The notes below the pieces were generated by a model, which was not told where the DNA came from, searched no databases, and saw nothing but the letters and a program-made list of their open reading frames with translations. The translations under genes were made by a program, and so were the position numbers. A stretch of DNA of 52,646 nt. Origin: a bacterium (GTDB taxonomy: Bacteria > SAR324 > NAC60-12). Positions 13,517-33,952 of the stretch are shown one piece after another. How positions within the stretch are numbered: the first letter of the stretch is position 1; every line of letters begins with the position of its first letter. The DNA lies in NCBI GenBank assembly GCA_965233585.1, contig CBDDTI010000328.1:1-52646 (forward strand), read 5' to 3'.

Positions 13517-13683
13517 CACTCTCATTCGAGCTTGTTACGCTCTAAAATCACCTTAAAACGTTCTCAAAACACCTTAAAACAGGCTGAAACCGTCTTTCAA
13601 CCATCCGTTTACCGATAAAAACCATCTTGATGCGCTCTCAAAACACCTTGATGGCATCTACATTGAGCCTGTTTCAACCTGAA

Positions 13684-13975: not shown

Positions 13976-15605
13976 CTCAATTTTTCCCACTTTCCACGTT
14001 TTGAATCAGTTCGGGGGCGCGAAGAAAGGTTCTGAGAACGAAAAACGTCTTTTTCCGTGCGGTTTGACTCAAATATTCTTTCATGTTCAAACTTTATTTC
14101 TTTAAAATTAAAGCAACTCGCGCGCCAACGCGTTTTAAATTTCAATTCGCGCCGTAAGCAAAGATTTAGGCTCAAATTTTAATCACGTTAGGGGAAGGGG
14201 TGTCCAAATGCTTTTCCTCAACATTGATGTAACTAATTTCACAGTCAATTTCGATCAATTCAAAATTCAACACGTATCAAGAAATTCGGCACTTACCTTA
14301 CAATTTCGTGGCAGTCCTGAGAATCTCCAAATTTCTAATTTATTTTGGATTTTCACGAATACCACATCTTTGTGAGCAAGCAACAACCAAATATTTTAAA
14401 AGTGATAAAAGAAAAAAACTGTTAGGTTTCATGCTTTTATTGTTTGGCTTGGAGGTTCGAAAGTTCCCGGAAAAATAATTTGGATCTCCAACAAACGATA
14501 AAATTATGATCAACCATCATCAACTCCCATCTAAACACACATCCTCAAGTCAGAAAAATTACAACGTTTCATGTTTTTTAGTGAATATGAAGGGTTTAAA
14601 TGTTTAACAAATTTATTTAGATTTTTCATAATCACTTTAAAACGTCGAACAATCTACAATTTTGCTTTAATTTATAATTATTATTTTTTTGTTGCCAAGA
14701 TTATTATTCACGATTTTTTGGTCCTTGTGTACATTTTAGAATGAGTTTGGAATTTCTCAGTCTATTTTGTATGCAAAAAACCAGAAAATCACAAACAGCG
14801 GAATATCTTCATCCTAATTGTCAAGAACATTTTCTCTCACGCTTTTTTGACCTTTGTGTAGCTGCTAAATTATTTTATTAAGCTCTACCCAAGGGCCGAT
14901 AAATCATGAGAAGGCACTTCAAATACTCCGCCGAATAAAATTTTATAAAATGTGACATGTCGATTTAATTTGTAAGTGGTTTCTTCATCATCCATCAAGA
15001 ATACCGTTCTTTACACTCTTTTGGCAGTATGTGAAGCTCAAATTTTTTCCATAAATTATTTGCGTTTTACAAACGCCTTAAGATTGTAAATAATCCGCCA
15101 CATCGTCATTAAGAAGATTATTCTCTCAGGTTTTTTCGCCGTTGATTATTTGCTTAAATTTTATTTTATTAAGCAAATACTCTACGGTTTATAAACCATG
15201 AGAAGTTACTTCAAATACTACGTCGAATACGTGTTTATTATTAATAAATTGTGCTATAATATTTTATTAGTGAATGCGTTTGTGATTGTTTTCATCATTA
15301 ATTGTGAACATCGGCTTCTCGTTCTTTTGGTAATTGTACGGCTCAAATTTTTAAAAAATAATTTGAGCCCTACAAACGCCTTAAGATTGGAAGCAATCTA
15401 CATCGTCGGAAGCACATCCAAGCGCAAGACTTCATTGTCAAGAACATTGGTCATGCTTTTTAAATTCCTGTACGACGGCTCGATTTTAATTTATCAAGCC
15501 ACGTGCAAGAATTTTAAAATTGTGACAAATCACGTCGGAAATTTCGAGCGCGCTTTTAATATTTATTAGAAATGTCTGTGTAATATGTCGTTTCAGTTGT
15601 GCATC

Positions 15606-16007
15606 ATGAGTGGTCAAGACAACAAGCAGTCAAAATCATCATCGTCGCACAATTCCGACTGGGGAGAGGAATATACCGGTCCTGATGTTACCGGTATTTA
15701 TGATACTTCCGACCCGAACCGCGTTGTGCATCATTCTTTGCGTCGCATGTGCGCGCATCTTCGTAAAATCAACGAAGCATTGGAATCTTTGGACAGTGAA
15801 TTGGTGCAGTACAGGGCTTGCATCAAAGACAAACTTCTTGGCAAACTCAATAATTCACGCGACTCCGATACCAAATTGTGGTGGCATCGTGAAATTTCAA
15901 ATGAAATGAAAGTGTTTCATTTTTATGCGTCATTTTGCATGAAATTGTTGTGTAAAGATTTCTGTTTAGAACATTATCCAATTCGTGAAGAAGTAGTAGA
16001 AGTATGA
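15606..16007 (+). CDS. Hypothetical protein (133 aa), helical, Cys/His-containing
   Basis: ORF nearly identical in copy 2 (35848-36249). ATG preceded by TTTCAG. Confidence 0.65.
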   Translation: MSGQDNKQSKSSSSHNSDWGEEYTGPDVTGIYDTSDPNRVVHHSLRRMCAHLRKINEALESLDSELVQYRACIKDKLLGKLNNSRDSDTKLWWHREISNEMKVFHFYASFCMKLLCKDFCLEHYPIREEVVEV

Positions 16008-16309
16008 GCGTCTCTTTGCGCCGAACGACAAGCTCTGACCGAGATAAAAAATCTTGTTTCAAAGAAGTAGATCAAGATACGTTTCATCAAGATTTGCAAT
16101 CTCCTGATCTTTGTCCTAGAAACGATTGCTGTAGCGTGTGCGCGATGTTTTTATCAATTTTTGTGATTACTTCCGTTTTTCTTTGGTTAATGTACGGACT
16201 AACTTATAACGGTTTAAAGGCGCTTAATCTTGCGAATCAAACTTTAGTAGATATTTCTTTATTAAATCTCACCAATAATTCGTTATTTTCAAATAAATTG
16301 TTTTATTGA
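16004..16309 (+). CDS. Hypothetical single-pass membrane protein (101 aa)
   Basis: ATGA overlap with previous ORF; hydrophobic MFLSIFVITSVFLWLMYGL preceded by a Cys cluster and followed by N-x-S/T sequons; conserved in copy 2. Confidence 0.6.
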   Translation: MSVSLRRTTSSDRDKKSCFKEVDQDTFHQDLQSPDLCPRNDCCSVCAMFLSIFVITSVFLWLMYGLTYNGLKALNLANQTLVDISLLNLTNNSLFSNKLFY

Positions 16310-16317
16310 AATATAAT

Positions 16318-18057
16318 TTAAATTGGATTTTTAATTACAATGTTTAAAATTACTCTTCGATCGTCGTTAAATTCAATCAAATTTCCGTCTAATCTCCTGA
16401 GCTCGATCTTCATGTCGTCTAAATAATCAACATTGCATCTTATGAATTCTAAATTTTCGAAATGGATAGAACAGTAGTCATTTTGTGTGGATTGACCGAT
16501 TGTTGGTATAACTCTAAATATTGGGTAAAATTTGTCTCCAATAATGGAATGTTGAACAAAATTTGCATAACATATCATAACACCGGGATATAATTTGTAA
16601 ACGTCCATTGGTTTTGGTGCTTCAAAAAATCTTTCCTTAGTCACTGCAAGCGTGACGTAATCACCTCGTTCCTCAATTCTTGCAAATTCTTTCTCCGAGT
16701 AATCGTACATTCCTAAAAACGGGCAAAAGTTTTTGGGAATGCTTATTGAAAAAGGTTTATCTGTTTTAGCCACAATCCTAAAGAATCCATTAAAGTTCTC
16801 AAAATGTAAAATTTCCTTTAGTTCTTCAGATAACAGACGGTTTATTGATGTTGTTAGATCATCAGAGTTGCAGAAATAAAGGTTTGGTATTTCCACGACG
16901 TGTTTTTTTGTTTCGTTTTGGTTCATCAACACATTAAAGATAAACGGATTCCTTCCAATTGATTCTGGAATGCTACATATGGTGTTGGGAAAAGATATAT
17001 CCATCAAGGCTATTTTCGCGTTTTGATTCAAACTTATCGGATGTTTTAAGTGTGCCCAAAAACTACTATTTGTATTTTCGTAGTTCAATTTGGTATCTAC
17101 TTGTGAATCGATTCGTACGTGCGTTAATTCGTAATCCATATTTTTATCTTTTTCTTTTAAATGAAAATGCACTATAGACGGCTGACCTTCGTTTAAACTT
17201 AAAAGATTCCCAAAAGAATCTATAAATTGAGTGTTTATCGTTTCAATATTGGATTGTCGCACTTGATAATATCTGATATTTTTTACATTATGGTAAAAAT
17301 AATGACCTTCCATTTGATTCGGCAAAGTCGTTGTAAACATAATTGTGGAATAACTATTTCCGCTGGGAACGTCAGAAATAATATTTGATTTTATTTGAAC
17401 CAGACCGGGTTTTAAAACGGAATACACTTTAATTGCTGTAGTTAGAAGCGCAAAATTTTTCTTTACAGAAAAATACACATATTCGTTGTCGAAAAACTTG
17501 ATTGATTTTGCTTGGGAGGATACAAAACCGTTTTGGTAATATTTTAAATTTAAAATTTTTATTAAATGTTTATGTATCAAAAAATATCTATTATAATTGT
17601 AATTTACATTTTCCATTTCTTTTTTCGGATTTTCATCTATTACGTAAGCTTTTTCATCTTTACCCCCCGATTTGGGTTCAAAATTATACAATCTCATTCC
17701 TTCCTTGTAAATATATTGCATCAAGTTTTGCATCAGTCTATGCACTGTCAATACATCTTCATCTAAATTAGGCAAAACCCAAATGGATTTTGTCTGGTCT
17801 AAAATTTCGGACTTTATGTCTTCTTCCGAAGAATTTATAGATGTTAATTCGTTTTTTAGCGTGATGAAACAAGGTTGGCCTTTTGACAAAGTCATTTGGT
17901 TGTAATTGTAATGTAATCCAATAGACACTACCCCAATTTCCCATTCTCTATTTTTCAAGTCTAAACTTTGTGGAAATAAATTGGTAAAAGAATTCAAAGT
18001 ATTTTTGTCATCCGTATCGGAACTAGCGTTTGACACGCAATAAATATTATAATCCAT
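16318..18057 (-). CDS. Minor capsid (penton-like) protein with two tandem single-jelly-roll domains
   Basis: SNAS..NTLNSFTNLFPQSLDL..WEIGVVSI is the Polinton mCP N-terminal pattern. It recurs from Met307 (NTNSSFWAHLKHPISL..KIALMDI) and the protein ends SIIGD..PIFRVIP..IELRRLDGNLIEF. Confidence 0.8.
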   Translation of the reverse strand: MDYNIYCVSNASSDTDDKNTLNSFTNLFPQSLDLKNREWEIGVVSIGLHYNYNQMTLSKGQPCFITLKNELTSINSSEEDIKSEILDQTKSIWVLPNLDEDVLTVHRLMQNLMQYIYKEGMRLYNFEPKSGGKDEKAYVIDENPKKEMENVNYNYNRYFLIHKHLIKILNLKYYQNGFVSSQAKSIKFFDNEYVYFSVKKNFALLTTAIKVYSVLKPGLVQIKSNIISDVPSGNSYSTIMFTTTLPNQMEGHYFYHNVKNIRYYQVRQSNIETINTQFIDSFGNLLSLNEGQPSIVHFHLKEKDKNMDYELTHVRIDSQVDTKLNYENTNSSFWAHLKHPISLNQNAKIALMDISFPNTICSIPESIGRNPFIFNVLMNQNETKKHVVEIPNLYFCNSDDLTTSINRLLSEELKEILHFENFNGFFRIVAKTDKPFSISIPKNFCPFLGMYDYSEKEFARIEERGDYVTLAVTKERFFEAPKPMDVYKLYPGVMICYANFVQHSIIGDKFYPIFRVIPTIGQSTQNDYCSIHFENLEFIRCNVDYLDDMKIELRRLDGNLIEFNDDRRVILNIVIKNPI

Positions 18058-18063
18058 TCCGCG

Positions 18064-19152
18064 TTATTGTGGTATATCGACTATGTCTTTTTCGTATGTC
18101 CAACTAGGGTTTTTATACCCTTTCCATTTTATTAAAGCCATTTTTTCTCCGGTTTTTTTATCTTTTTTGGTCCGGAGAATCTTTTCGATGGCAAATACTT
18201 CCGGCTCATCTACGGGTGTAAGTTCACTCTCATAAAAATTTCCTTCCAAAGTTTCATCTTGTTCCAAAGTCTCTAACTCATAAGTGGGTTTTGGCAAACG
18301 TGTAGAAATTGATTTTATTTTAAAAATTTCTTCTTTGAATTGCGGTGTAAATCCTCTGTCGAATTTTCCCTTCATAATGCTAATACGCACGGTTTGGCCG
18401 ATTTTGTATTTTGGTTTCGTTCTTTTAATCTTGGAATAAACCAATTCTTGTTTTCTTCTAATGTGATAGGTTCTTCCGGGGAGTTCTGCTTCGGCGGGTG
18501 ACATTCCGATCATGCGATGTTTACGATTGTTGTAGGTATGGACAAGAAAGGGTAACGCGTCAATGTACCTGTCGGTATTTTCGTGAGTCATGTATCTAAA
18601 CAATAAGTTTTTTAAAGTTCGGTTAAATCTTTCCACAAAGGGGGCGTGCACAAAATTATTGCTGTGTAACAGAAGAATGTTATTGTTTTTGCAGTAGGCT
18701 TGAAACAATTTATTCTTAATTTCCGCTCCTTTATCGGCTAAAATTCTACGCGGAAATTGTTTTGCTCTTTTCATAATAGATTCAAACCCTTCCATAAATG
18801 TTTTTGCCATTTTATTTTTTAGTGGTTCTACAAAGGCAAATCGTGTAAAAATATCAATGGCTGTCAAAAGGTATCTATTAGAATCATTTTGTTCAGCCAA
18901 ATTTCCTAAATCTATAAGGTCAATTTGAAACTGATACCGTTTTCGATAAGCAAATGTCGGATTTCTCGGTCTGGGAAATTTAGGCTGTTTGTGTAATGTG
19001 TAGGAGTCTGTTCCTTTTAGCCACTCCTCGATTAACGTCAAAGGGATTTGTTTTTTATAATAATGATAGATTAGGGCGGGAGACGCAAAAGCTATTGGCG
19101 AACCCGGTTTCGCGTATTCTTTTAAAAAAGTCTCTTTTGTCGTTGTCGACAT
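18064..19152 (-). CDS. Retroviral-type (rve) integrase with C-terminal chromodomain
   Basis: YTLHK, FQIDLID, YLLTAIDIFTRFA, ADKGAE, VERFNRTLK (DDE triad intact), YNNRKHRMIGMSP, FYESEL, IEKIL..IKWKGY..SW. Confidence 0.95.
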   Translation of the reverse strand: MSTTTKETFLKEYAKPGSPIAFASPALIYHYYKKQIPLTLIEEWLKGTDSYTLHKQPKFPRPRNPTFAYRKRYQFQIDLIDLGNLAEQNDSNRYLLTAIDIFTRFAFVEPLKNKMAKTFMEGFESIMKRAKQFPRRILADKGAEIKNKLFQAYCKNNNILLLHSNNFVHAPFVERFNRTLKNLLFRYMTHENTDRYIDALPFLVHTYNNRKHRMIGMSPAEAELPGRTYHIRRKQELVYSKIKRTKPKYKIGQTVRISIMKGKFDRGFTPQFKEEIFKIKSISTRLPKPTYELETLEQDETLEGNFYESELTPVDEPEVFAIEKILRTKKDKKTGEKMALIKWKGYKNPSWTYEKDIVDIPQ

Positions 19153-19554
19153 TTAAAACAGAGGTTCTTTCGATATTTTGCGCCTTTTTTTCCTAGATTG
19201 CGTAATTGACGAGGGTTTTCTTTTTCTGTTCGAATTTTGAGTTCGATAGTCGTCGTTGCTATCGGCTTGTCGGGCAGCGTTAAGCAAAATACCTCGTGTA
19301 GCGGATTTTAAACGTTGTTTTGCTTTTCTGCCCACCGGTTGACCCTCCAAAGCTTCTATCGCCGTTTCTACAGCCGCTCTTGTCGCTTCTTTTTTTAAAG
19401 CTTTTCCTACAGATTTTATCGGGGCGCTTTTGGCTACACGTCCAATAGTTTTTATCGTTGATTTTGCTACCGGCATTAATCCGCGAAAAATTCCGGAAAA
19501 AAGCGATCCAATTCCCGAACCTCGTTGCCAATGTAAACCGCTGTGGTAATTCAT
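19153..19554 (-). CDS. Basic virion core-type protein with QRGxG motif
   Basis: QRGSGIGSLFSGIFR amphipathic N-terminus and Lys/Arg-rich tail, typical of small Polinton proteins that are putative adenain substrates. Confidence 0.75.
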   Translation of the reverse strand: MNYHSGLHWQRGSGIGSLFSGIFRGLMPVAKSTIKTIGRVAKSAPIKSVGKALKKEATRAAVETAIEALEGQPVGRKAKQRLKSATRGILLNAARQADSNDDYRTQNSNRKRKPSSITQSRKKRRKISKEPLF

Positions 19555-19563
19555 ATATGTATA

Positions 19564-20322
19564 TTATTGATTTAGACTTTTACGACATCTGTACAACGAC
19601 ATAACACTGACGCCTAAAATGTGAGCCATATTTTTGACGCTTAAATATCGCAATTTGGATTCTTTTAAAAAGGCATAAGCGCATGCGGCTAATAAAGTTC
19701 TTGGAGCAAAAGAACTATTTTCATTTTTTTTTAATATTTGTTCAATGGACGTCATTTCTTGATAATTTAACTGCAGCGGCTGTAAAAAATATTCTTTCAT
19801 ATCTTTCGCTTTTATGTAATTGTCTAATTTATTCATGTCAGTCAAATCCCGTCTGTATAATTTCATCCAACGCCACACTATCTTTGGATTAACGCCGACT
19901 TCTTGACACAAATGACTTATCGGGCGGGGAATTTTTTCTTTTATCAAACCTTGATATAACGTCATAACCACCAGTCCTTTAGCATCTATTTTAATTTTTC
20001 CACCTTTTCGATGATGCCACGCTACTATATCTGACCATAGATTAAAAATAACATTTGTAACATCATTATTTAAATGTAATTTATTGCATAAAATTTTTAA
20101 AATATTTTTTTCTTTCTCTAAATGCCGGTTTTTTTGTTTAATTTCTTCATCAAATGTTTTTATTTTGTCCAATTTTGTTTCCAAATTTGATTTTGTTAAA
20201 TTATAGCAATATATTTTATCAATAACTAATCCGCACTCGGTACACACCACGTCCCCTTGCCTGGTGTCTTCTACTGGATATTCATGATTGCATATTTTAG
20301 TATAATCTACTTTCTCGCGCAT
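19564..20322 (-). CDS. TFIIB-like transcription initiation factor (252 aa)
   Basis: Zn ribbon CNH..VEDTRQGDVVCTECGLVID, then two cyclin-fold repeats (LCNKLHL..LYQGLIKEKIPRPISHLC; APRTLLAACAY..VKNMAHILGVS). Start assigned from copy 2. Confidence 0.88.
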   Translation of the reverse strand: MREKVDYTKICNHEYPVEDTRQGDVVCTECGLVIDKIYCYNLTKSNLETKLDKIKTFDEEIKQKNRHLEKEKNILKILCNKLHLNNDVTNVIFNLWSDIVAWHHRKGGKIKIDAKGLVVMTLYQGLIKEKIPRPISHLCQEVGVNPKIVWRWMKLYRRDLTDMNKLDNYIKAKDMKEYFLQPLQLNYQEMTSIEQILKKNENSSFAPRTLLAACAYAFLKESKLRYLSVKNMAHILGVSVMSLYRCRKSLNQ

Positions 20323-20378
20323 AATTTTGATGTTTATTGTATAAATATTAAAACTCAACTAAATAAACATTATTCACA

Positions 20379-20921
20379 TCATTCGATTTTATATTTTTTT
20401 AATAATTTAATAATAATTTTTATTCCATGTTTAGCATCTTCTTCGCTGGAGGCTCCAATTATAACTATTTTTCCCGACGAAAATATTAAAGCTGAACACT
20501 TTTTTATTTTTAAAAATACGCCTGGGAATTTTTCTGGGTCGTATCTCTTATAAATGATTTCAAAGTCTTCATTCAATTTTAAATGGTTGTAAAATCTCGA
20601 TAATTTGATCTCTTCTTTTGATTGATACAAACAAGTCATGTTTTCTACTTTAAATATTTTAACAACAAATTCGCTACTTATAACAAGTTTTAGTTCGTCT
20701 AATGCTTTTGCAATATGTTCTGTAGAGGGAATTTTTGTAATGTTTACATGAAAATGTCGATTTTGTTTTGTTTTGGTAAATATAATAAAGGAATATTTTT
20801 TTCTTATTACAACAAAATTATTATAACGTTTTATTGTATTATCGGTATTAAAAGAAATTTCGTCGCTGTTAATAAGATGAACTTTACAACTAATTTTTAC
20901 ATTGCTGACCAGCACTTCCAT
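20379..20921 (-). CDS. TATA-binding protein (TBP)-like (180 aa)
   Basis: Two repeats starting VSNVK and VENMT. The second has YDPEKFPGVFLKI..SALIFSSGKIVIIGASSEEDA, closely matching the TBP signature. Confidence 0.92.
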   Translation of the reverse strand: MEVLVSNVKISCKVHLINSDEISFNTDNTIKRYNNFVVIRKKYSFIIFTKTKQNRHFHVNITKIPSTEHIAKALDELKLVISSEFVVKIFKVENMTCLYQSKEEIKLSRFYNHLKLNEDFEIIYKRYDPEKFPGVFLKIKKCSALIFSSGKIVIIGASSEEDAKHGIKIIIKLLKKYKIE

Positions 20922-20927
20922 CTTGTT

Positions 20928-22271
20928 ATGGGCGTACCTGAAAAAAGCGGAATTGCCGGATTGGCCGTTGAACAAAACGACGGCACTGAAAGTGGTTTAG
21001 CGCTTCACTCACCGTTAGAAGTAGAAACAGGTTTATTAGACGGGGCTCACGTTATTTACAATAGCGTGGCTTCTATCACCAACACCGGACCGGTCGAATT
21101 TCTTGTTCCTCGCGATAACGAATGCTCTTTTATACTAAATCAAACCAGACTTAGCGGCTATTTTGTAGTGACAAATGACGATGGTGCTCAGGTAAAAAAT
21201 GATACTAAAGTCACACTGGCTAATCATTTTGCCGCTTGTTTATTCAGCCAAGTAGAAGTGTACTTAAACGGGGTCCAAGTAGCTGATTTAAGTTCGGCGG
21301 TCACTTATCCTTGGAGAATGTTCATACAATCATTTCTAAGTTACAATTCGGAGGTGAAAAAAACTTATCTGGCTGCCGAAGGATACTATCCCGAAAATGC
21401 TGACGAAGTTGATACCATAAATGTTACAACCGCCACACCGTCTTTGAATAAAAGAAAGCAGTTAATTACGGATGGTAAAAAAGTGTATTTTAATACGCGC
21501 TTAGCCGTTGATCTGTTTGACACCGACAGATTTTTACCTCCGAATGTGGACATCAAAATTAAGCTAGTTAGATCCGCTGAAAAGTTTGGTTTGCTTCAAG
21601 ACGCTGCGGCAGAAAAACCTTTTAAAATTGTTTTAAAAGATGTCAAATTACATATGAGAAAGGTGTTGCCCACATTATTGCTACGGGAAAGTTTTAAAAA
21701 CAAACTGTTAAAAGAACCGTGCTACCTGCCTTTTAGCGCCACACGTTTAAGACATTATGTTATTCCTCAAGGCGTGTCGTCCTTTAACATCGCCAATATC
21801 GCTAATGGTACTTTGCCGAAACAAGTGTTTTTTGTGATGGTTCACAATCAAGCCATGTCACACGCCCCGGACAAAAACCCTTTTAATTTTCAACATTTTA
21901 ATCTGTCTACTTTTAATTTAAAAAAGAACGGACAATGCGTATTTCCCAGACCATTTCAACCTAATATAAATGAGGGGGACGCCATTGACTTGTATCGGCA
22001 TTTATACGACAGTATTGGCATTTCGCACGGCAATCAATCCATCGGTTTAACGTATGAACAATATTTAAAGGGAAGATTTTTTCTAGCGGCTGATTTAACA
22101 CCGGATCAATGTAATTCGTTCCACGTACATCCGGAAAATTACGGAAATTTAGATTTAGAATTGGCTTTTTCCGTAATAACTCCTCATCCTATATACGTTC
22201 TGGCTTTTTCTGTTTTTAACTCCGGCATTAAAATAGATCAATTCCAACAAGTCATAAAAGGAACAAATTAA
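20928..22271 (+). CDS. Major capsid protein (double jelly roll, hexon-like), 447 aa
   Basis: GPVEFLVP, LFSQVEVYLNG, YPWRMFIQSFLSY, DRFLPPNVDIKIKL, GTLPKQV, NPFNFQHF, DLTPD, GNLDLELAF. The 71 upstream in-frame codons are antisense to TBP and probably not translated. Confidence 0.92.
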   Translation: MGVPEKSGIAGLAVEQNDGTESGLALHSPLEVETGLLDGAHVIYNSVASITNTGPVEFLVPRDNECSFILNQTRLSGYFVVTNDDGAQVKNDTKVTLANHFAACLFSQVEVYLNGVQVADLSSAVTYPWRMFIQSFLSYNSEVKKTYLAAEGYYPENADEVDTINVTTATPSLNKRKQLITDGKKVYFNTRLAVDLFDTDRFLPPNVDIKIKLVRSAEKFGLLQDAAAEKPFKIVLKDVKLHMRKVLPTLLLRESFKNKLLKEPCYLPFSATRLRHYVIPQGVSSFNIANIANGTLPKQVFFVMVHNQAMSHAPDKNPFNFQHFNLSTFNLKKNGQCVFPRPFQPNINEGDAIDLYRHLYDSIGISHGNQSIGLTYEQYLKGRFFLAADLTPDQCNSFHVHPENYGNLDLELAFSVITPHPIYVLAFSVFNSGIKIDQFQQVIKGTN

Positions 22272-22274
22272 ATT

Positions 22275-22757
22275 ATGGAAAACGGATTATCAAATATCTT
22301 TTTATCCAATTATATTCGACCAAGATGTAAATATTTTATCGGGGTTTTTTCAAGCGATAATTTGCCGTCCGATTCGCTCGAGTTGCCTTGTTGCTTAATC
22401 ACCAACTTATCCAAAAAAAATCAAAAAGGATCACATTTCATAGCGATGTATATCAACGGAAAAAATCAACTCTATTATTTTGATTCATTCGGTTTTTTAC
22501 CGCCAATATGGAATCAATGTTTAATGAAGTTCTTACGGCCTTGGATAGAAAAAAACTCATTCAAAACAATTCTGTCTTATTCCGTTCAGGATTTTCGTTC
22601 TTTGTTTTGCGGCTGGTACGTGACCGCTTTTTGTTTATCCGTGGGCAACAATTTAATGTCTCCTCAACAATTTGTTAAAATATTTGTAAAAAAACCCAAA
22701 ATAAAAAATGATGAAATTGTAACTCATTTTATAAAAAAACTTGAAAATAAACGATGA
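22275..22757 (+). CDS. Adenain-like cysteine maturation protease
   Basis: FIGVFSSD, GSHFIA (His), YFDSFG (Asp), VQD..SLFCGWY (Gln, Cys). Confidence 0.93.
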   Translation: MENGLSNIFLSNYIRPRCKYFIGVFSSDNLPSDSLELPCCLITNLSKKNQKGSHFIAMYINGKNQLYYFDSFGFLPPIWNQCLMKFLRPWIEKNSFKTILSYSVQDFRSLFCGWYVTAFCLSVGNNLMSPQQFVKIFVKKPKIKNDEIVTHFIKKLENKR

Positions 22758-22774
22758 CATATATTTTACTTTCA

Positions 22775-23620
22775 TTATAATTTCGGGTATTTTCCCGGAA
22801 AAAGTAGTTTTTTTTTAACAGCATCTGCATCAGTTGTTGAAAGTTTTTTTGATTTAGATCTAGTTTGTACGGGAGAAATAGTAAAAGTTTTCTTTTTCGC
22901 ACCTCCTGATCCTGTTTTGAGGGATGACGTTGAAGCCGAAGGGGATTTTGATGCTTGTGAAGAGACCGAGGCTATATCTTTACCAATTTTTTCTGTGTCA
23001 AAGATGGACAATTCTTTCATATGATCTCTTACAAGGTGTTTGCCGAATTGCGCATCGTCAACATACTGCTTCCCGCATGCGCTAAAAGGACAAACTATTT
23101 TGCCGTCTGAATTTTTTTGTGTCAATGCCTTTATAACAGGCGAATTTCGCCATTCTGGCACGTCAGGAGTTGAAGTATCGTCCTTGCTTTTTGGTCTTGA
23201 AGCGGTATAAAACAAGTCTGGATCGGGTTCCCTCTCCATAACGGGAGTAGTGGGCAAAAACTGAGCGGTATTTTCTTTTTGTTGGGGAGTTTGAGCGGTT
23301 GTTGATCTTGAAATAGATTGATACGTACGACCCGTACTGCTATCGAGTTGTACTGGCGGCATAACATTTGATATATTATCAGAACCAAAACGGTACAATT
23401 TATCACCGCTTTGATTCATTTTTTGCCTGTCTTGTAAATTTTTAAAATTAATGGCATTTTCAATGTAATTAGACGTGTTTGGTTTTTCATTCATAGAAAT
23501 AAGTTCTTTTTTTGTTTCATTATCTTCTATATTTTTTATTAAAGAATGATATAGCCTTTTGGGGACTAAAAACATGGAGTATATTTCATCATTTAATTTT
23601 CTTTTCACGGCTGAACTCAT
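22775..23620 (-). CDS. Hypothetical protein with one C2H2 zinc finger and basic S/T-rich tail
   Basis: MFLVP N-terminal motif; CPFSACGKQY..FGKHLVRDH; conserved in copy 2. Confidence 0.75.
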   Translation of the reverse strand: MSSAVKRKLNDEIYSMFLVPKRLYHSLIKNIEDNETKKELISMNEKPNTSNYIENAINFKNLQDRQKMNQSGDKLYRFGSDNISNVMPPVQLDSSTGRTYQSISRSTTAQTPQQKENTAQFLPTTPVMEREPDPDLFYTASRPKSKDDTSTPDVPEWRNSPVIKALTQKNSDGKIVCPFSACGKQYVDDAQFGKHLVRDHMKELSIFDTEKIGKDIASVSSQASKSPSASTSSLKTGSGGAKKKTFTISPVQTRSKSKKLSTTDADAVKKKLLFPGKYPKL

Positions 23621-23623
23621 CCT

Positions 23624-23998
23624 TTAACGACGACGTTGTAGGCTCTTTTTTGCAATAATTTGAGCCAAAATAGGGACGATAATGCTGGCAATTGCCGATA
23701 AAGTTCCTAAAATTCCGCCCCTTTGTAGTATTGTTCTTTTTTTTGAAATGTCGGAAGAGCGACGAGGCGGCGTGGCAAGACGTCTGAACTCCCCTAAATG
23801 AGCTCTAATTTTTTTCTGAAGTCGTGTTCGCACTTCGCCATGTAAGGGCAATTCGCCGTTCAAAACGTAATGTAAAATACGACAAAGCAATTCAACGCCG
23901 CGATCGTCCAAATAATTTAAAAAATTAGCGCAATCTTTATGTTTTAATTTTTTTATTGCATTAAAAAGCGAATTAGCTTTTTCTAATTTTTTTGACAT
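23624..23998 (-). CDS. Conserved small Polinton protein with LQRGG site and hydrophobic C-terminal helix (putative membrane-active virion protein)
   Basis: LLCRILHYVLNGELPL..KKRTILQRGGILGTLSAIASIIVPIL, next to the ATPase. Confidence 0.75.
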   Translation of the reverse strand: MSKKLEKANSLFNAIKKLKHKDCANFLNYLDDRGVELLCRILHYVLNGELPLHGEVRTRLQKKIRAHLGEFRRLATPPRRSSDISKKRTILQRGGILGTLSAIASIIVPILAQIIAKKSLQRRR

Positions 23999-24044
23999 TT
24001 TAACAGTAATTATTTTTAATTTTTCTTAAATAGATATGAAATTT

Positions 24045-24740
24045 TTAAACAGTAACGTAGGCTTTCATTAATCCTTCATAAGAAAAGATGTTACTTCGAA
24101 TTCTGACTTTATCATCTTGCTGTTGATGAAAATCTAGAAGAAGATATCCGTGACTTCGACCGTTAACTGCTTCTCTATACGCTTTATTTAAGATTCCAAC
24201 ACGACCGGGAAAAATTTGTTTTGCCAAATGTGTGACGGCGCTTCTGTCCCGCGGATTATTAAAAAGGATCATGTATTGCGTATTTATGCTTAATGTCCGT
24301 AAATCGCCTTTTTTGTCAAATAAATTTTGACAAAGAAAAATGGTGAAACAATTGTAATGATGGGTCAAAACCGTAAAAAAATGTTTTAATATTTGCCCAA
24401 CATCGTCTAAATAATCGTCAAAAACAATCAATTTGGGCATTTTTCTCGGATATAATTCTAAAATATCTTTCAACTCTTCAATTGAATTTGGAATATTTTT
24501 GAATTTACGAAAAGACGGAAATTGTGTGTCAGAACCTCTGCCCTCGTTCATGTCGTCTTCCATGTACTGATATGCTTTTTGCGGTTCTTTGTAAAACAAC
24601 AACATTGTTTCAGGCGGAGTTGCGAAATATTCGTGCCGACGAAGCACTAAATGTTTTAGCCACGTTGTTTTTCCGCTTGATGTTGGACCAACAACCAACA
24701 TGTTGGACGGAATATTAAACCTCAAATCAAAACCGTTCAT
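24045..24740 (-). CDS. A32-like (FtsK-HerA) DNA packaging ATPase, 231 aa
   Basis: Walker A GPTSSGKT, Walker B LIVFDD, HHYNCFTIFLCQNLF, RTLSINTQY, NPRD, GYLLLD. Confidence 0.93.
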   Translation of the reverse strand: MNGFDLRFNIPSNMLVVGPTSSGKTTWLKHLVLRRHEYFATPPETMLLFYKEPQKAYQYMEDDMNEGRGSDTQFPSFRKFKNIPNSIEELKDILELYPRKMPKLIVFDDYLDDVGQILKHFFTVLTHHYNCFTIFLCQNLFDKKGDLRTLSINTQYMILFNNPRDRSAVTHLAKQIFPGRVGILNKAYREAVNGRSHGYLLLDFHQQQDDKVRIRSNIFSYEGLMKAYVTV

Positions 24741-24807
24741 TTTATTAATTTTAAAAAAGAAATTACAAAATTTTCTTTTAAATAAAAGTAATGATTTAAT
24801 TATTTTT

Positions 24808-27800
24808 TTATTTACAAATTTGACATTTAGACATTTTGTTGTTAACAATAAGACTATTTCCTAACGATAAAGTGTGACATCCGCAATTTAAAACATATCT
24901 TTTGGAATCCATTGCCGACAACGCAATTTTTCTTTGAAAACACGTCCGGATTTTGTGATTCTTTGATCTTAAATTTTTAAAAGATTTGTAAATTACAACA
25001 GTTTGCTTTAAGCACTTTTTGTAATCTGCATAAGTTAATTGCTTTTTTATACTAGATTTTTTTAAACCTTTGCATACTTTTTTCTCATCAGTTTTGTTTT
25101 TGTCCAAAAAATCGACTATTTTCATAGAATAACATTTTGGACGTAAGCCTATAAAATCAGTAATAGCCGCTCTACCTTTTAATTCATCTTTGAAATAAAA
25201 AAGTTGATTGGCTTTACTGTCGTCAAAAAGTGGATGTTGTTTAGGGTACTTTGAAAAATCAAACATGTGTTTCAATCTCTCCATTTCCCTTTCCAAATTG
25301 TTGCATTTAACTTTTAAAAGAAAAGAATCCGTGTCCGAAAAACACAAAGATACATTGTCTTTGCCAAAATGTTTTTGAATGGTGTCATAGTATGATCTGT
25401 ACATAAACAACTTGGACAACTCTAGAATGGAAAATCCGACGGCTAAAGGCTTTCTCAGCTCTATCATTGCCGGCTTCTTGTTGACAGCCACCAAATTCTC
25501 ATTAATGATTTGAAAATTGTTGATGTGTTGACCAAGACTGGCTTTCCTCAAGCTTTTTTCATCTCCACAAAGGACCACTTCGATGTAATTTCGAACATTT
25601 TCTGAAAAATATAAAATTAAATAAATATTTTATAAAGAATACAACATTTTTTAAAAAATTCATTATAAAGTGTTTAGGAGTTTGGAGATTTATTTTTTAA
25701 AAACTTCCTAAAACCATGTGGCAATTTTCAAAACAAACTTTCAAAACAAAAAGAGGACAGTGATGATGATGATGATGACGATGATGAAGAGGGGATACAT
25801 GAGGTTGAAGGATGAGGAGGACGACGACGAGCAGTGGCTGCTGAAGGAGGAGAAGGAGAAGGAGGAGAAAAAGAACCGGAGACCGGGGGGCGTAATCGGA
25901 CGGATCCGGTCGGCCGTGGCCGGCATTTTTGATGCTCCGCCGCCCGCGGCCGCCTCCGCGTGGCTGGGATTTTCGATGCTCCGCCGCCCGCTGCCGCCTC
26001 CGCCACCGCCAGCGCCGCTGCCGTTGCACTCTCTGTTAGCGTTGCTGTACTCGCCGCCAGCGGCGCTGGCGGCGGCGGAGGCGGCAGCGGTCGCCGAGGC
26101 CTTCAAAACGAAAATTTTATTGCGCCTGACGTCCCCACCGACATTCTTGTTGACCTCCCCACCAACGTCCCCACCGAGGTGCCCACCGAGGTCCCCACCG
26201 AGTCCCCCATCGAGATGCTCATCGAGGCCCCCACCGAGTCCCCCATCGAGATGCTCATCGAGGCCCCCACCGAGTCCCCCATCGAAATGCTCATCGAGGC
26301 CCCCATCGAAGTCACCACCGCCGAAATTCCCTCCAATGTCCCCACCGATGTGCTCATTGACGTTTCCGTCCCCATCGAGGTGCCCACCGAGACCCCCACC
26401 GAGTTCCCCACCGAGGCCTTTGTCGAATTCCCCGTCGATATCCCCACTGACGACCCCATCGAGGCTCCCATCCCCATTAGACTCCCCGCCGACGACAGAT
26501 CTTTTGCCGCCAGACGTCGGGCGACGGAGATTGTCCGCCTGGCTAAAATCCGGGCAGCGGCAAACCGAATGGCCGATTTCGACGGCGAGGTCGTCACTGT
26601 GGAGGCCGAGGTTCACGCGCCTCCCAATGACATTGAAGATGTAGATGAGCGTGTGGTGTGTACTGCCAATACATTTTGCACTAAATATTGGCAGTACCAC
26701 CACACGCTTGTGCAAATATAAAAATACAAAAAAGATTCTAAATCCGGGTATTTACTTACCGATAAACTTTCCAAAAGTAGAGTTGGCAAAAAGCTTAAAA
26801 AGCCGAAGTTCAAAATCGTTGCGAGCGTTTGATCGTAGCATCGTGACCTTTTCAATAAACTCCTTCAAAAAAGCTTTTTGCCGAAACTTTACGGCTCTTC
26901 TTATCCTCAGCAGCTTCATGCCTTTTTTCAAGTAATATTGCAGGTTTTCCAGATGCACAACGTACTTTTTTCGATCATAAAAAGTGCTCAACAGTTTCTT
27001 GCTTCGGTATCTTTTGTTCTTATAATCTCGAGGGTTAAGATGTTTTAGTAAACGGCGATTATAAGGAGACAGATGTTTGTAAGAAACCGTGTCTGTATAC
27101 GGAGCCAGCGGAAATTGATCATGTGTCTGTAAATATTTTACCGTTTATCAAAATGCAAAAACGTGTTAAAAAGATCAGATTTACCGGGTGAAGATGAGAA
27201 GGGTAATGCAAATCAACTTCAAATGCGTAGCCGGTCTCGTCTTGAGAAGAAATCTTGATAATATCTTTGGCAGTCCATTTTTCAAGATCTTTTTTTGCAA
27301 CCCACTCGAAATCAGAAACTGGCAATTTTAAAGTCTCCATGCTCCCGTACAAATTGTTTGCTAAAAAGTCACCGATTTTAAATAAATAGATTAATCAAAC
27401 GATGCAGTATAAAATTACCGTCAATGTAAAGTAAATGATCGCCGCTTTTTCTCGGATTGCTGTTTCCTTTTGCATAACGCTGAGAGATAAAGCTTTGTCC
27501 GCCTCTGATACCCTTTGTAAAAAACTGCTCCATTTCAGGATCGGAATAGATATCCAGAGATCCTGGAGGTTTGGAAGATTCACCCGCGAGGTTATCTTTT
27601 GTTGTTGTAGCTCGTTCAGAGTTTTGATAAAACATAAGCATAACATCAAAACTTAGTCCAGGAATTCCTAAAATTATACGAAATAAAATTTATATTCAAA
27701 CTTTGTATGTCAAGCAACAGAAAAGGAAATTTACCTAAGTAATAGATCGGATCCAATTGAAAGTGTTCCATAACCATTTTCCTGTATTGAAGAAACGCTT

Positions 27801-29548
27801 CACATAGCAGGATGACATCCAAAGAACAATAAAGCATCATGTAATCCGCCACATTCTTGCACTTGAACAGTTTGAAGACTTCTTGCGCATGAGAATAATC
27901 CGTTTCCGAGATGTGTTCTTCATTCAATTCGGAATAAAAAGCATCTTTGGTTGGTAGGTTTCGACTTTTTTTCATTTCTTGTAATGATTGAAAATGCTCG
28001 TAACAAAAAATGCCTTTTCTTTTTAAAAGTTTAAAAGCTTTTGATTTTTGACGGATAGGAATTTTTTGAAATCTTTTCATCTGTTGTAAAATAGGGAAAG
28101 AAAAGTTTGAAGTTTGATTTAAATCTTGGACAAGTGCGTCTAAGCTGGCAGATATGTGCTCTAATGAATCTTGGATTTTAAATTTGCCCAATGTAAGAGT
28201 GCGAAACTTTTCACTGTTTCTAGCCAAGACTTCTGGCATTCTCTTGAATCGGCGAATGTTTAACTCTTCTATGATTAAATGCAAATCGTATCTGAAACAT
28301 TCAATTTGTTAAAAAATTAATTAAAAAAATAAAGTTAATAAAAAATTTTTACCCTTGAGCGTTGTGGAAAAAAATTGGCGTGTGATAGGGTCCGGATCTT
28401 GTCAAATTACACAGCGAATGAGCCGCACCCATTATTTTTCCTGTGACATGATCGTGATCCAAAACTTTTCTATACTTTTTAGGATGGGTAGCAAATCGGA
28501 GACCGCATATATGACAAACGGTTGCTTTTCGAAACATTTGCCATTCCTCATGGGTGGCTTGAGTTTTGAGAACATCTCTAAATTTTTGTTTTCTTTCTTC
28601 AACCACTTTTTCGTAGAGAGGTATCCGATCCAAAAAACGTTTGGCCGCATCCTCTCCTAAATATTCTTCTTGAAAAAATACTTCATTTTCGGAGTCCACA
28701 AAAATCAGGCTGTAGCCTACCGGTCTATGCACATTTATGTCGTCACTTGTGGGAAAAGCACACAAGCATTCCAATTTAGAACAAAGTCGACATTTAGATC
28801 GTTCCTTGTTTCTTTGAAGCACACTTTCAAAATCACAAAATCCCACAACAGGTGCTTTAAACTTATGTTTGTGGTTAGAAAAACTTATAGCGGCATTTTT
28901 GCCGGGATAGATGGTGCGTTGCTTATCGTAGCAAATCCGCTCATGCTTTTCTTTTTTGGATTTTGATCGGAAACGCAGCAGACATTTTTCACAGTGAATG
29001 TACTTCTGTTGACCCGCTTTGTTAAACGACAACAGTCCGGCCCGATTATTCAAAAAACCTTGGAGTTTTGTAATTTTAAAGAAATGATGTTGTTGATTTA
29101 AATCTTTGATTTTTTTAGGAAACTTGGAAGGAAAACTCGATTTTTTAGGGTGGGAATTACTCAAAGTTTTATCGGAAGAGATTTTGGGATCATGTTTTAT
29201 CATTAACAAATGGAGAGTATTTTCTCTAATATCGTTGTTTTTGTTAGTAATAAACCCTAAATTTGAAACGTGACCTTCACTCTCATAAAGTACGGAAATT
29301 GAAATTGGTAAATGACGATTTCTACGCAAAAATTTTTTTATGTCACAAAATTGAAGAGGAAACGTAAAACCTTTTATGTTAAATTTTTTAAGATATTTTA
29401 TTGGCATTTGACGAAAATCTGTAATGGAAGCAATTTCTGGAAAAAGATGTCTAATGTACAGATAAAGAAAGTTAAATTTATCATATCGAGTATTCCATTC
29501 CAAGCAGTTAGATCTTTTTATATCTCGTGTAATTTCTATAAAATCCAT
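24808..29548 (-). CDS. Protein-primed family B DNA polymerase, 6 exons (29548-28353, 28291-27735, 27667-27419, 27360-27185, 27126-26760, 25601-24808), 1112 aa
   Basis: GT-AG splicing restores motifs across junctions: HNAQG/YD, YLG/IPGLSFD, YID/ANNLYG, LHP/THDQFPLAP, FGKFIE/NVR. Also DFES (ExoI), YCSLD (ExoIII), KLFANSTFGK, SDTDS and an endonuclease VII-like insert (CHIC..DHDHVTG..AHSLCN). Exon total is 3339 nt, a multiple of 3. Confidence 0.92.
25762..26721 (+). pseudogene. GC-rich P/E/T/I-repeat protein gene nested antisense in pPolB intron 5; frameshifted in this copy
   Basis: Orthologous to intact 46008-46928. A 44-nt duplication (25915-25958 / 25959-26002) shifts the frame. Confidence 0.6.
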
Positions 29549-29598
29549 TTCCAAAGCTTACTTGAATTTTTCATATACAACAAAATAAGTCCTTAAAA

Positions 29599-30360
29599 TC
29601 AAATATTGGTAATTTGGATGTCGCTAAAAGACAGAGATTCAAATCTCCATCCGGAACCTCTCATCAACAAATCCTCTTCTCGACTTATTAAATTGTTTAA
29701 TAATTTTTGAACTTTACCTTTTAACGAGCGAGAAGAATCAAAAGACGTAAATTGAATATAGCCGGTTCTTAAAGCAAAGACATCTCGATCGCTAGGCATT
29801 AATTCATGTGACGACTGATCAAAACTTTTTTCAGTCGAATCATCAATGTTGCTAACAACCGTTTGAGGCTGTGATGAAGTATTATCAACAACAGCTTCCG
29901 TCTCAGTGTCTTTGTCTTTTGTAGCTGAATTCAAATCAGGAATCTGATACGCCGCTGATAAAATTAAAGCAACTTTTACTGTAAAGGTTTTACTCAATTC
30001 ATGACGAATGACATCAACAATTTCTTGCCTATTTGCTCTATTGACGACAAAGGCGTGAAGCGTTTCTGTAGAAAAAATATGTTTCCGAAAAATTTTAATT
30101 TTACCATTCAGAGCAGATTTAAAAAGTGAATAATTTAAGTCTTCTAAATGAGAGGAATCGATGTGAGAGACCAAATCACTTCTTGATTTAAAGGGACTTA
30201 ATTCATTCTTACAAAACGGGCACTGAAGCGATTGATTTAACGGAGTCCGATTTCGGAATTTTGATGTTGTTTCACGATGACGAAACAATTCATGTTTGTC
30301 TCGGGAAGATTTTCTAGTAAACGATTTTTGACATTCGCGGCAGACGTAGGATTTTGGCAT
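29599..30360 (-). CDS. Stand-alone pPolB N-terminal (terminal-protein-like) ORF with two C2H2 zinc fingers
   Basis: CRECQKSF..HELFRH and CPFC..HIDSSH; C-terminal MRGSGWRFESL, the GSGW motif normally found in the N-terminal part of Polinton pPolB. Stop conserved in both copies. Confidence 0.72.
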   Translation of the reverse strand: MPKSYVCRECQKSFTRKSSRDKHELFRHRETTSKFRNRTPLNQSLQCPFCKNELSPFKSRSDLVSHIDSSHLEDLNYSLFKSALNGKIKIFRKHIFSTETLHAFVVNRANRQEIVDVIRHELSKTFTVKVALILSAAYQIPDLNSATKDKDTETEAVVDNTSSQPQTVVSNIDDSTEKSFDQSSHELMPSDRDVFALRTGYIQFTSFDSSRSLKGKVQKLLNNLISREEDLLMRGSGWRFESLSFSDIQITNI

Positions 30361-30460
30361 TTCTGTTAAAATTCTGAAACAAAATTTATTGACGCGTGAA
30401 ATTTGGAAATAATATATACAAACACATTAAAACTATATAGCTCAGACTAATTAATACAAA

Positions 30461-31291
30461 TCATTCTTGTCTAAAATGACGCAACAATCTTTGATATTGA
30501 GCACGTAAGCGTTCGCGTTCACGCTCAAGCGTTTGAATGCGTTGACGCAATACGTACTCAGCATAACGATTGAACAAATCATAAGGTGAGCCTCCTTCTA
30601 CATCAATTAAATCAAGAATGAAAGAGGCTAAACGACCGTCACTCGATCTTTCTAAATTTGAGGGTGCGGGGAAATAATTTTCCTCTTCTATTTCTTCTTC
30701 TGCTGATCGAGTTGGACGTTGATAAGGAGAAGAATATCTTCCACCCCTACCAACACCGCGTCTGACCTCTCGTCCAATCGAGGCTGAAGTCGTTTGATTG
30801 AAGGGGCGAGAAATATTTTGACCCCGACCAACGCCACGACCAGCGAACGAATTACTCGAGGTGTTGCGCTCAGCAAAAATTCTTTGAAACATGGGACTCG
30901 ATGTTGAATCATCGACAGCGTTGTTTGATGATGGCGATGTTAATTCATCGGCGGAGTTATTGGTCGATGTTGAATCATCGGCTAAATTGCTATTGATCCG
31001 AACCATAATTCCAAATCCTTCGGGGTTTACAACTATCGGTTCAGATACTCGACCCCGTTGATTAAACGAGGAAGATGTTGTTTGGCCCCGACCAACACCA
31101 CGAGCGGGGAGAGAAGAACTTGAGCCATCATTTGACCTCAAATCTCCTCGACCTCGTCCAATTGGCACAACCGGTGGTGATGGCGGTGATGTTAAATCAT
31201 CAGCGTTTCTTAGATGAAATCTTATTCTTAACCCTGCAGGGCCAAGAAAAACTTGGCGAGGGTTGTTGGAGTCATTTGGTAAATTAGACAT
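30461..31291 (-). CDS. RG-rich disordered protein with C-terminal coiled coil
   Basis: GRGRG and three RGVGRG motifs, ADD(L/S)TS repeats, LRQRIQTLERERERLRAQYQRLL. Frame kept in copy 2 with a 3-nt indel. Confidence 0.72.
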   Translation of the reverse strand: MSNLPNDSNNPRQVFLGPAGLRIRFHLRNADDLTSPPSPPVVPIGRGRGDLRSNDGSSSSLPARGVGRGQTTSSSFNQRGRVSEPIVVNPEGFGIMVRINSNLADDSTSTNNSADELTSPSSNNAVDDSTSSPMFQRIFAERNTSSNSFAGRGVGRGQNISRPFNQTTSASIGREVRRGVGRGGRYSSPYQRPTRSAEEEIEEENYFPAPSNLERSSDGRLASFILDLIDVEGGSPYDLFNRYAEYVLRQRIQTLERERERLRAQYQRLLRHFRQE

Positions 31292-32052
31292 TTTAGTTAC
31301 CTTTGATAGCGAATGGCAGAAGATCTTCTTTCAACGAATGTTCAAACTTATAATGAATGAATTTGAAAATATGACCGCGTTTTTATACAATTTTTGGTGG
31401 GAAATAGTTTGGCGCATTTACGAGCCAATTGCACGAGAAAAAATTAATGATAAATTAAGCACAAAAAAATTAAAGATATCCACAGCAAATTACAAATCTT
31501 GAGCATGAGAAACATTAAGTACTTAGAAAAATTAATGGTGATTTGATCGAGTTTTGACAAATATAATTTGTTACAAATATGAACTAGTTGAATGAGAAAA
31601 ATTGATGGAAAATACACGCACACACACACGCACTCACACACACCATGAGCACTCATTTTCCGTAATTTTCTTGAACCATTGTTTAATTCACAATTTAACA
31701 TGTTCAAAAACACAAATTATCCGTAATTTCCTTGGGGCATTGTCTGTTAACGACTTGACGCGTTATAATTTAGGATGAACCAAAAACATTAATAAGAATT
31801 GACCTCAAACGCGTTCAGCATCGTTAAAATTTACAACCATTAGCGTCATAGCTTATTTATGCTGTGTAACCAATTAAAATCGATGAAACTTATCAGCTAC
31901 TTGCCCGCGCATGTGGAATCGAGAGCCCCTTAGAACATTGCCATACTGACACTCCCTTAAACTCAAGAAGGTTTAAAAAGAACCTACATTCGATGACAAA
32001 CGTCAGTGCAGATTTATTGTCGGAATAAATCACCCGCATTTAAAGCAATAAA

Positions 32053-33272
<1,220 letters not shown>

Positions 33273-33376
33273 AATAAAACGAGCAAAAATGTACATAGGC
33301 ATGAATGTATTTTGAGAAATAAAATGAAATGCGCATTTATTTTATTCAAATAAAAATAAAAACTAGATTATATGTA

Positions 33377-33749
33377 TTATACGGGAGTAGACAAATTTAG
33401 CCTGGTAGAAAGAGGAGGGTCAACGGTTGTTGAAGAATCCGCTGCAGGTTCCGTCCGAGGCATGTTGAATAACGGAGGAATCATGCTTGAAAAGTACGGC
33501 CGTCTATGATAAACCTAAAAAATAATTTATATATAATAAGCGATTTAAAAATAATAATAAATTTCCTACCGTATACTCGGTGTTGGTCGCTTGATCTACT
33601 TTTTCGGGAATTGGCAAAAAAGTAGTTGCATCGGACGGCAACGCCGATGCAGTTGACTCAAACGGCAAAATTTCGACGCTTGATTCTTCCACAGCCTCGT
33701 CGTTTGCCGATGAATCTGCAGCAGCTTGTATTGAAATCATTTCAATAGG
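33377..33749 (-). CDS. Spliced low-complexity protein, 3' exons (33749-33570, 33514-33377); 5' end uncertain, possibly truncated by copy 2
   Basis: A 55-nt GT-AG intron joins ..ATNTEYT/VYHRRPYF..STPV*. A strong T-rich acceptor lies just upstream of 33749. Confidence 0.55.
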
Positions 33750-33952
33750 CTAAAAAAAAATAGAATAGACAAAATATTTTATAAACACTCTCATTCGAGC
33801 TTGTTACGCTCTCAAAACACCTTAAAACGTTCTCAAAACACCTTAAAACAGGCTGAAACCGTCTTTCAACCATCCGTTTACCGATAAAAACCATCTTGAT
33901 GCGCTCTCAAAACACCTTGATGGCATCTACATTGAGCCTGTTTCAACCTGAA

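Follow-up and report, generated by a model that had tools for sequence, protein, structure and literature searches.

A separate terminal protein gene and a cysteine-less vOTU domain in a Polinton, with evidence for fission of a fused polymerase gene

The DNA analysed here, referred to below as the window, is a stretch of 52,646 nucleotides (nt) (contig CBDDTI010000328.1, assembly GCA_965233585.1), which contains two head-to-tail copies of a ~20-kb unit beginning at about position 13496. The unit is a Polinton/Maverick of the adintovirus type. In this element, the terminal protein (TP) and the DNA polymerase (pPolB) lie in two separate open reading frames (ORFs), and the vOTU protease domain at the start of the polymerase has Asn at the position of its catalytic Cys. 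We consider it very likely that this arrangement arose by fission of a fused TP-vOTU-pPolB gene, with the free TP, preceded by two zinc fingers (ZnF-ZnF-TP), priming replication in trans via Ser236, and with the dead vOTU domain kept as a module.

The TP gene of copy 1 (29599..30360, on the reverse strand, as are all positions in the TP and polymerase genes given below) was identified from its ORF, profile and structural model, and encodes 253 amino acids (aa), ending in GSGWRFESLSFSDIQITNI before its stop codon. The first exon of the polymerase gene (28353..29548; ORF, Pfam and model) starts with an ATG at 29548 (MDFIEI), and the 50-nt spacer between the two (29549..29598) contains a stop in each frame. 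Copy 2 is split in the same way, with a TP gene of 251 aa (49800..50555) followed by a polymerase first exon (48554..49749) that likewise has Asn at the catalytic position, and every frame of the spacer is again closed. The preliminary description of the window had reported the stop, the restart 50 nt later and the closed frames in both copies, and all of these were confirmed from the ORFs.

A tblastn search of the TP against the assembly gave 41 matches, 39 of them reaching the C-terminus, and these 39 are the denominator for the copy counts given here. In 39/39 copies the TP ORF stops ahead of the polymerase ORF, with TP identity to the window ranging from 100% down to 23%, and the Ser of the GSxW motif, the Asn at the catalytic position and the His of the vOTU domain are each kept in every copy. 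The spacers are 2 nt (8 copies), 3 nt (1), 18 nt (2), 20 nt (1), 49 nt (3), 50 nt (8), 52 nt (7), 53 nt (7) and 79 nt (2) long; every phase is represented, and the phase differs even between copies that are nearly identical (49/50, 52/53 and 2/3 nt). Being present in all 39 copies, the split is the result of neither chance nor decay. As many genes of the element are packed 0-9 nt apart, a 50-nt spacer between TP and polymerase is ordinary for it.

Structure prediction for the TP (AlphaFold, 49 alignment rows, pLDDT 79) gave a TP fold, as had been anticipated. The protein consists of two C2H2-type fingers (about aa 5-71), followed by a PRD1/adenovirus-type core (aa 78-252), within which about aa 150-190 form a variable acidic insert. 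The model has strands at 78-83, 88-97, 127-139, 192-205 and 239-252 and helices at 108-122 and 210-232, with Ser236 of the GSGW motif in the loop between the second helix and the last strand. Its best solved matches were the little-finger/PAD domains of Y-family polymerases (Z 8.2-8.6, root mean square deviation (rmsd) 2.6-3.1, 95-106 residues aligned). This domain is the proposed ancestor of PRD1-like TPs (Krupovic et al. 2024, PMC11161782), and TPs of the PRD1/adenovirus type are described as having two helices and a sheet of four to five strands, with a relationship to the Y-family little-finger/PAD domain (Krupovic 2024, bioRxiv 10.1101/2024.03.18.585575, section 6). Their linking residue is a Ser or Tyr beside a Gly or Pro, between helix 2 and the last strand (bioRxiv 10.1101/2024.03.18.585575). 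As modelled, the fold of the window TP and the position of Ser236 fit this description. Ser236 (codon 29653..29655), invariant in 49/49 aligned rows, is the predicted linking and priming residue on the basis of its conservation, its loop position in the model and the published rule.

The TP profile aligned over its full length to the first 195-205 residues of two fused, Cys-bearing database polymerases, P0051 and P0034 (hhalign 98%, E 5e-14 and 1e-13), while no match was obtained outside the GSxW region in the distant fused polymerase of contig C492 (probability 2.4%). The profile also matched 73 further database proteins in a search limited to 115-443 aa, a limit under which the search itself does not prove that these TPs stand alone. 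Among the 69 best matches, 50 have a GSxW-like motif and end 11-59 residues past the motif start, mostly 20-33. A search of the ESM Atlas with the TP core gave no usable match, and a sequence search of the PDB returned zinc-finger matches only.

The first exon of the polymerase encodes a Cys-less vOTU domain (about aa 1-170), zinc-binding motifs, Exo I (DFES), an endonuclease VII/HNH-like insert (aa 332-383) and the start of Exo II. It had been proposed from DKFNFLY, set against the pattern DNKCFLW, that the catalytic Cys is replaced by Asn, and this was supported by alignment: both MAFFT and hhalign pair Asn26 (codon 29471..29473), with no gap, with the Cys of three fused polinton polymerases encoded in this assembly (DDECFRW, DNKCFKY and DNHCLRW). 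Asp23 (29480-29482) and His155 (29084-29086) are retained and are invariant in comparison with these three relatives, and the codon of the Asn varies synonymously only (AAC/AAT). In an active vOTU protease the catalytic Cys lies in helix 1 and the His in the last strand; the window polymerase keeps the latter and has Asn in place of the former. The model of the domain (72 alignment rows, pLDDT 89.6) agrees with the OTU fold expected for the first ~200 aa of the polymerase, as the first 22 rows of a wide VIA-align search were OTU-type deubiquitinases by title (Z 4.2-6.5), the best of them with Z 6.5, rmsd 3.9 and 107 residues aligned. The Asn-bearing vOTU domain is presumably an inactive protease. 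The best viral structural match for both the TP and the vOTU models was one 560-aa protein of Drosophila-associated adintovirus 2 (E 3.6e-7 and 1.5e-5), which is what the two parts of a single ancestral polypeptide would be expected to show. A complex prediction for the TP core with the vOTU domain scored 0.00 in a run in which the controls did not fold.

The vOTU domain could still be a protease that uses another nucleophile, or the split could be a decay lesion spread by copying, and both are highly improbable in our view. Asp23 and His155 are kept, and in some subfamilies a Cys follows the Asn at a distance of four residues (NFLYC), but the window family has Leu at that position and no Cys is invariant within aa 1-170 across nine split rows. 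Cys15 of SNCLEW was considered as an alternative nucleophile and ruled out because it is not conserved, its column being variable when the nine rows are aligned. In five between-subfamily pairs, the ratio of nonsynonymous to synonymous substitution rates (dN/dS) was 0.12-0.19 for the TP and 0.11-0.26 for the vOTU domain (aa 1-170), and for the TP of the two window copies it was 0.17. Purifying selection on both ORFs, and a split kept down to 23% TP identity, argue against decay; because of this selection between subfamilies, the vOTU domain can be regarded as maintained. The earlier suggestion that fission made the protease dispensable therefore holds for the catalytic Cys, which has been lost, and not for the domain as a whole, which is under purifying selection.

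The two C2H2-type fingers of the free TP are present as described, with weak Pfam matches below the gathering cut-offs and with C7, C10, H23, C47, C50 and H66 invariant in nine rows. They were not gained by the free TP. At least one finger occurs in 9/12 fused sister rows and two in 8/12, and P0034 and P0051 begin with two, so the fingers are older than the split and came down from the fused ancestor, which rules them out as an innovation of the free TP.

An HMMER search of 1.84 billion representatives returned 349 matches, the best 150 of which were examined, with 133 of these covering the catalytic site. Among these best 150, proteins with more than 45 residues ahead of the site have Cys in 81/82 cases, the exception being a fragment, P0015. 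Those with a short N-terminus have lost it in 27/51 cases (19 Asn, 4 Gln, 2 Ser, 1 Ala and 1 Val), and the remaining 24 have Cys, many of them resembling internal-Met calls of fused types. Across the wider clade, a Met located 24-34 residues ahead of the catalytic position is the start of the protein. Longer homologues of the vOTU region escaped a word-based search but were found in large number by HMMER; scans of viral contigs and of one metagenome found no relative. A further metagenome scan gave five loci, with a full-length match in contig L013 only. This contig has a separate TP ORF with three fingers (1122-1826), a 73-nt spacer and a polymerase that starts 24 residues before an intact Cys, with the His kept.

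A 52-row tree of the region from vOTU to Exo II was built with IQ-TREE, its root not inferred; P0104 and P0149, which are divergent and have Ser at the site, short fragments, and Cys-bearing matches resembling internal-Met calls were left out. The 20 rows with a split or an N-terminal start fall together on one side of a branch (92/90), next to 12 fused rows with Cys, and the two sets together form a 100/100 group. Three changes in the state of the Cys are needed on this tree, at least two of them forced by starred branches, and a single grouping of the 17 non-Cys rows was rejected by the approximately unbiased (AU) test (p 0.0049, an optimistic value, as the group was named after the tree was seen). 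A single loss of the Cys was rejected accordingly. The split probably arose once, and the Cys was lost several times, or lost and then regained. The clade contains fused polymerases with Cys, split ones with Cys (verified on L013) and split ones with Asn, Gln, Ala or Val. Since split relatives that retain the Cys exist, fission would have come first, with the status of the Cys changing more than once. Alignment, predicted folds, conservation and the tree together support the reading of the preliminary description as regards the identity of the TP, the OTU fold, the change from Cys to Asn at the catalytic position, the break at the expected TP-vOTU linker and fission from a fused ancestor. P0104 apparently has three tandem vOTU-like repeats with Ser at the catalytic position in each.

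The position of the split rows also bears on whether the split and the dead vOTU are shared with adenoviruses by descent and not by convergence. Adenovirids may come from polintons with an already detached TP (Krupovic et al., PMC11161782), and an adenovirus polymerase fragment appears, weakly, among the viral structural matches (rank 10, E 0.25). However, the split rows have next to them fused polinton polymerases with fingers and an HNH insert (100/100 branch), split members that retain the Cys fall within the group, and the TP is small, without the large helical insertion found between strand 1 and helix 1 of the adenovirus TP (bioRxiv 10.1101/2024.03.18.585575). Shared descent is therefore hard to credit, and the fused polinton sisters point to independence from adenoviruses, in a 52-row tree that contains no adenovirus sequence.

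Another possibility is that the two ORFs are alternative products of one unit, joined in part by splicing. A polymerase mRNA spliced from a donor at 29717 in the TP ORF to an acceptor at 29535 inside the polymerase ORF would give a polymerase headed by the fingers and the first part of the TP fold; the full TP, as a separate priming protein, would come from the unspliced mRNA. When donors within the TP ORF were paired with acceptors as far as the vOTU motif, this candidate in-frame GT/GC-AG junction (29535..29717, 182 nt skipped, donor 59 nt ahead of the GSGW codons) was detected in 25/25 copies belonging to the two closest subfamilies (11 with a GT donor, 14 with GC). The donor resembles the intron-1 donors of the element (GG/GTAAGA and GG/GTAAAA), and the spacer is well conserved, with 40/50 nt identical between the window and a 76%-identical subfamily. 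However, the junction does not occur in the other 14 copies, five of which have no candidate and nine an unrelated one, and its donor and acceptor lie within conserved codons (KGK and MDFIE) that can yield them passively. The skipped length is 181-185 nt, compared with 58-88 nt for intron 1, and splicing would remove the TP priming loop, deleting the invariant D230, L231, S236 and F240 of the helix, loop and strand around Ser236. The Met that starts the protein across the wider clade also counts against splicing. The earlier statement that no conserved splice donor bridges the gap thus needs to be narrowed, since an in-frame donor and acceptor are conserved in the closest copies, although they are lost in the others and their use would remove the GSGW loop. 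As far as can be judged from the sequences, no splice candidate restores a priming-competent fusion across the family, and we consider partial fusion by splicing unlikely. In four sequencing runs of unspecified kind, one of which may be the source sample, none of the joints listed skipped the spacer.

An acceptor-like site precedes the TP ATG in both L013 and the window (30363-30374), hinting at spliced leaders, and the TP-polymerase spacer of L013 (1827-1899) resembles a 65-nt GT-AG intron located after the stop. A shared spliced leader is used by adenovirus E2B. For the present family, a leader shared by TP and polymerase was considered: sites resembling acceptors lie ahead of the TP ATG in several subfamilies, but none is conserved before the polymerase ATG. 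The downstream polymerase ORF could possibly be expressed via an internal promoter, reinitiation or a spliced leader.

Recoding, by read-through of the stop or by frameshifting, would leave a full TP-vOTU-polymerase uncleaved on the genome end, as has been proposed for bidnaviruses with a dead vOTU; in bidnavirids a fused TP and an inactive vOTU occur together (PMC11161782). In three copies, whose spacers are 3 and 18 nt long, TP and polymerase share a frame that only one TAA interrupts, and P0015, a 104-aa database fragment, is continuous from the end of the TP into an Asn-type polymerase start. The phase of the spacer varies among near-identical copies, however, and in the window there are stops in all three frames. 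Recoding is unlikely, and an uncleaved fusion of this kind has very little to recommend it.

The three in-frame copies, P0015 and the splice pair of the closest subfamilies all weigh against fission, and they are joined by several other points. An upstream ATG lies inside 14/39 spacers. The Z-scores of the folds are middling, with vOTU below 8, and in a Foldseek search of the vOTU model against the PDB, OTUs led the rows but none was found at E<=0.001. For the vOTU domain, dN/dS between the two window copies reaches 0.43-0.72, a value based on few changes. In the tree, the branch that unites the split rows has a bootstrap of 92 and is not starred, the sample is biased because the profile used for searching came from the Asn family, and the split state of most database proteins is that of gene-caller starts, with DNA context for this assembly and L013 only.

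We nevertheless favour fission, which could have proceeded as follows. An ancestral gene for a ZnF-ZnF-TP-vOTU-polymerase polyprotein would have been broken in the short linker after the last TP strand, in the region where vOTU is thought to cut, and the TP would then have been translated from its own ORF. Replication is most likely primed in trans at the terminal repeats by Ser236 of the free TP, and the inherited fingers perhaps help to bring the protein to DNA. With the protease left without a substrate, the vOTU nucleophile could have been replaced by Asn, and the dead domain may have been retained as a pseudo-protease, a module with a structural or binding role at the N-terminus of the polymerase. 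TP detachment has been proposed to make the vOTU protease of the polymerase obsolete, and the dead vOTU domain of adenoviruses may mediate TP binding (PMC11161782). A bolder version, which is offered tentatively and which we find doubtful, is that the presumed step towards adenoviruses has been replayed naturally in this clade, with intermediates surviving, and that the dead vOTU has been repurposed as a non-catalytic module docking the free TP or trapping ubiquitin at the replication complex. Repurposing as a binding module is suggested because the catalytic position repeatedly settles on Asn or Gln while the Asp and His stay.

The rest of the polymerase gene (24808..28352) was delineated from splice contexts and motif frames, with five candidate GT-AG introns that are phase-compatible (28352-28292, 27734-27668, 27418-27361, 27184-27127 and 26759-25602). 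The motifs DFES, HNAQG/YD, QDS, Y..LD, YID/NNLYG, K...N..FGK, DTDS and RPKCY are found in phase-compatible exons. The window polymerase matches fused polinton pPolB by profile; a PF03175 scan of its exon fragments gave no match, whereas its relative P0060 does match. Four of the candidate introns are 58-67 nt long, and several lie beside catalytic motifs. The last one (1158 nt, 25602-26759) has GC-rich repetitive ORFs on the opposite strand, with IEAPTESP-like repeats (26215-26721, and 46008-46928 in copy 2). The endonuclease VII/HNH-like insert (28400-28555; Pfam 25 bits, cut-off 23.6) also occurs in fused relatives. It has been called unique to nematode and oomycete pPolB2 (10.1101/2023.08.22.554363), and it seems to be more widespread than this.

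Polinton copy 1, which hosts the TP and polymerase genes described above, spans 13496..33785, with its left terminal repeat at about 13496-14044, and in place of a right end it runs into the start of copy 2 at 33786. At this junction (33785/33786), copy 1 is without the ~1.9 kb and the right terminal repeat that are present in sibling contig C284, and copy 2 begins ~21 nt into its left repeat. The left ~550 nt (13496-14044) are regarded as terminal inverted repeats because they recur in inverted orientation past the TP end in sibling contigs, for example C284, C437 and C670. The repeat holds 21/32-nt tandem sub-repeats with a 53-nt period (13517-13946).

Other ORFs of the unit encode an rve integrase with a chromodomain, a Pox_A32-like packaging ATPase, a C5-like (adenain-type) protease, TBP and a TFIIB-like protein. 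In Pfam, rve was above the cut-off, and Pox_A32 (E 0.0023) and Peptidase_C5 (E 0.031) were below it. Two capsid-sized ORFs of 464 and 579 aa had no match in a Pfam scan; from their sequence patterns they are putative capsid-like (major and minor jelly-roll) proteins. TBP (Pfam E 3.7e-19) adjoins the TFIIB-like ORF in both copies (19564-20921 and 39806-41163, reverse strand) and in many sibling contigs, and a literature search for the two together found no paper. Directly upstream of the TP gene is a low-complexity ORF of 276 aa (30461-31291, reverse strand) with GRG/RGVGRG repeats and a C-terminal coiled-coil-like stretch, to which a Pfam scan assigned no family. The introns and a retrotransposon-like stretch at 1-6100, presumably of the BEL/Pao type, suggest an animal host.

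Like the module of Adenoviridae, the element has a separate PRD1-like TP gene with Ser in the loop between helix 2 and strand 4, and an N-terminal vOTU-like domain in which a catalytic residue is replaced. Unlike adenoviruses, which are without integrase (PMC8502044), the window element has an integrase and terminal repeats; its TP of 253 aa has C2H2 fingers, is without the large helical insertion and lies directly upstream of the polymerase, which has the HNH-like insert and introns. The element therefore resembles the adenovirus module in its working and, with its integrase and small TP, is not a member of Adenoviridae.

Within polintons, the catalytic Cys and His of vOTU are conserved, inactivation being known from adenovirids and bidnavirids, and one coral polinton has a separate TP with an active vOTU (Krupovic et al. 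2024, PMC11161782). The pPolB of Bidnaviridae has an inactivated vOTU as in the window, but its TP is fused. The polinton of Stylophora pistillata (Stylophora coral adintovirus, StCAV), compared by description only, has a separate TP gene and a vOTU fused to the polymerase, as in the window; its vOTU is reported to be active, whereas the window has Asn, and L013 shows the StCAV-like state, split with Cys, inside the clade of the window. Canonical fused pPolBs (C492, P0034 and P0051) have the same TP and vOTU patterns, Asp, His and HNH-like insert. They differ in being one ORF, with the Cys ~47-55 residues past the Ser of GSxW in most sister rows, a linker that in the window is taken up by a stop, a spacer and a new Met. 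A literature search covering few subscription journals found no paper describing a polinton with a split TP and an inactive vOTU, and none is described in the available parts of PMC8502044, 10.1101/2023.08.22.554363, PMC8363768 and PMC12721341. In the literature available, a split plus a dead vOTU was found described for adenoviruses only, and a split TP in a polinton has already been published.

Annotation based on ORFs would mislabel the TP of such elements as a zinc-finger protein and miss the intron-split polymerase. The clade offers a small free TP, together with natural vOTU homologues predicted to be active and dead, for biochemistry. Apparently independent, it adds to adenoviruses, until now the only example of the full outcome, a second one in which the intermediate state survives, whereas the published polinton example kept its active site. 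It supports two linked hypotheses: that the job of vOTU is to release the TP, and that fission precedes inactivation.

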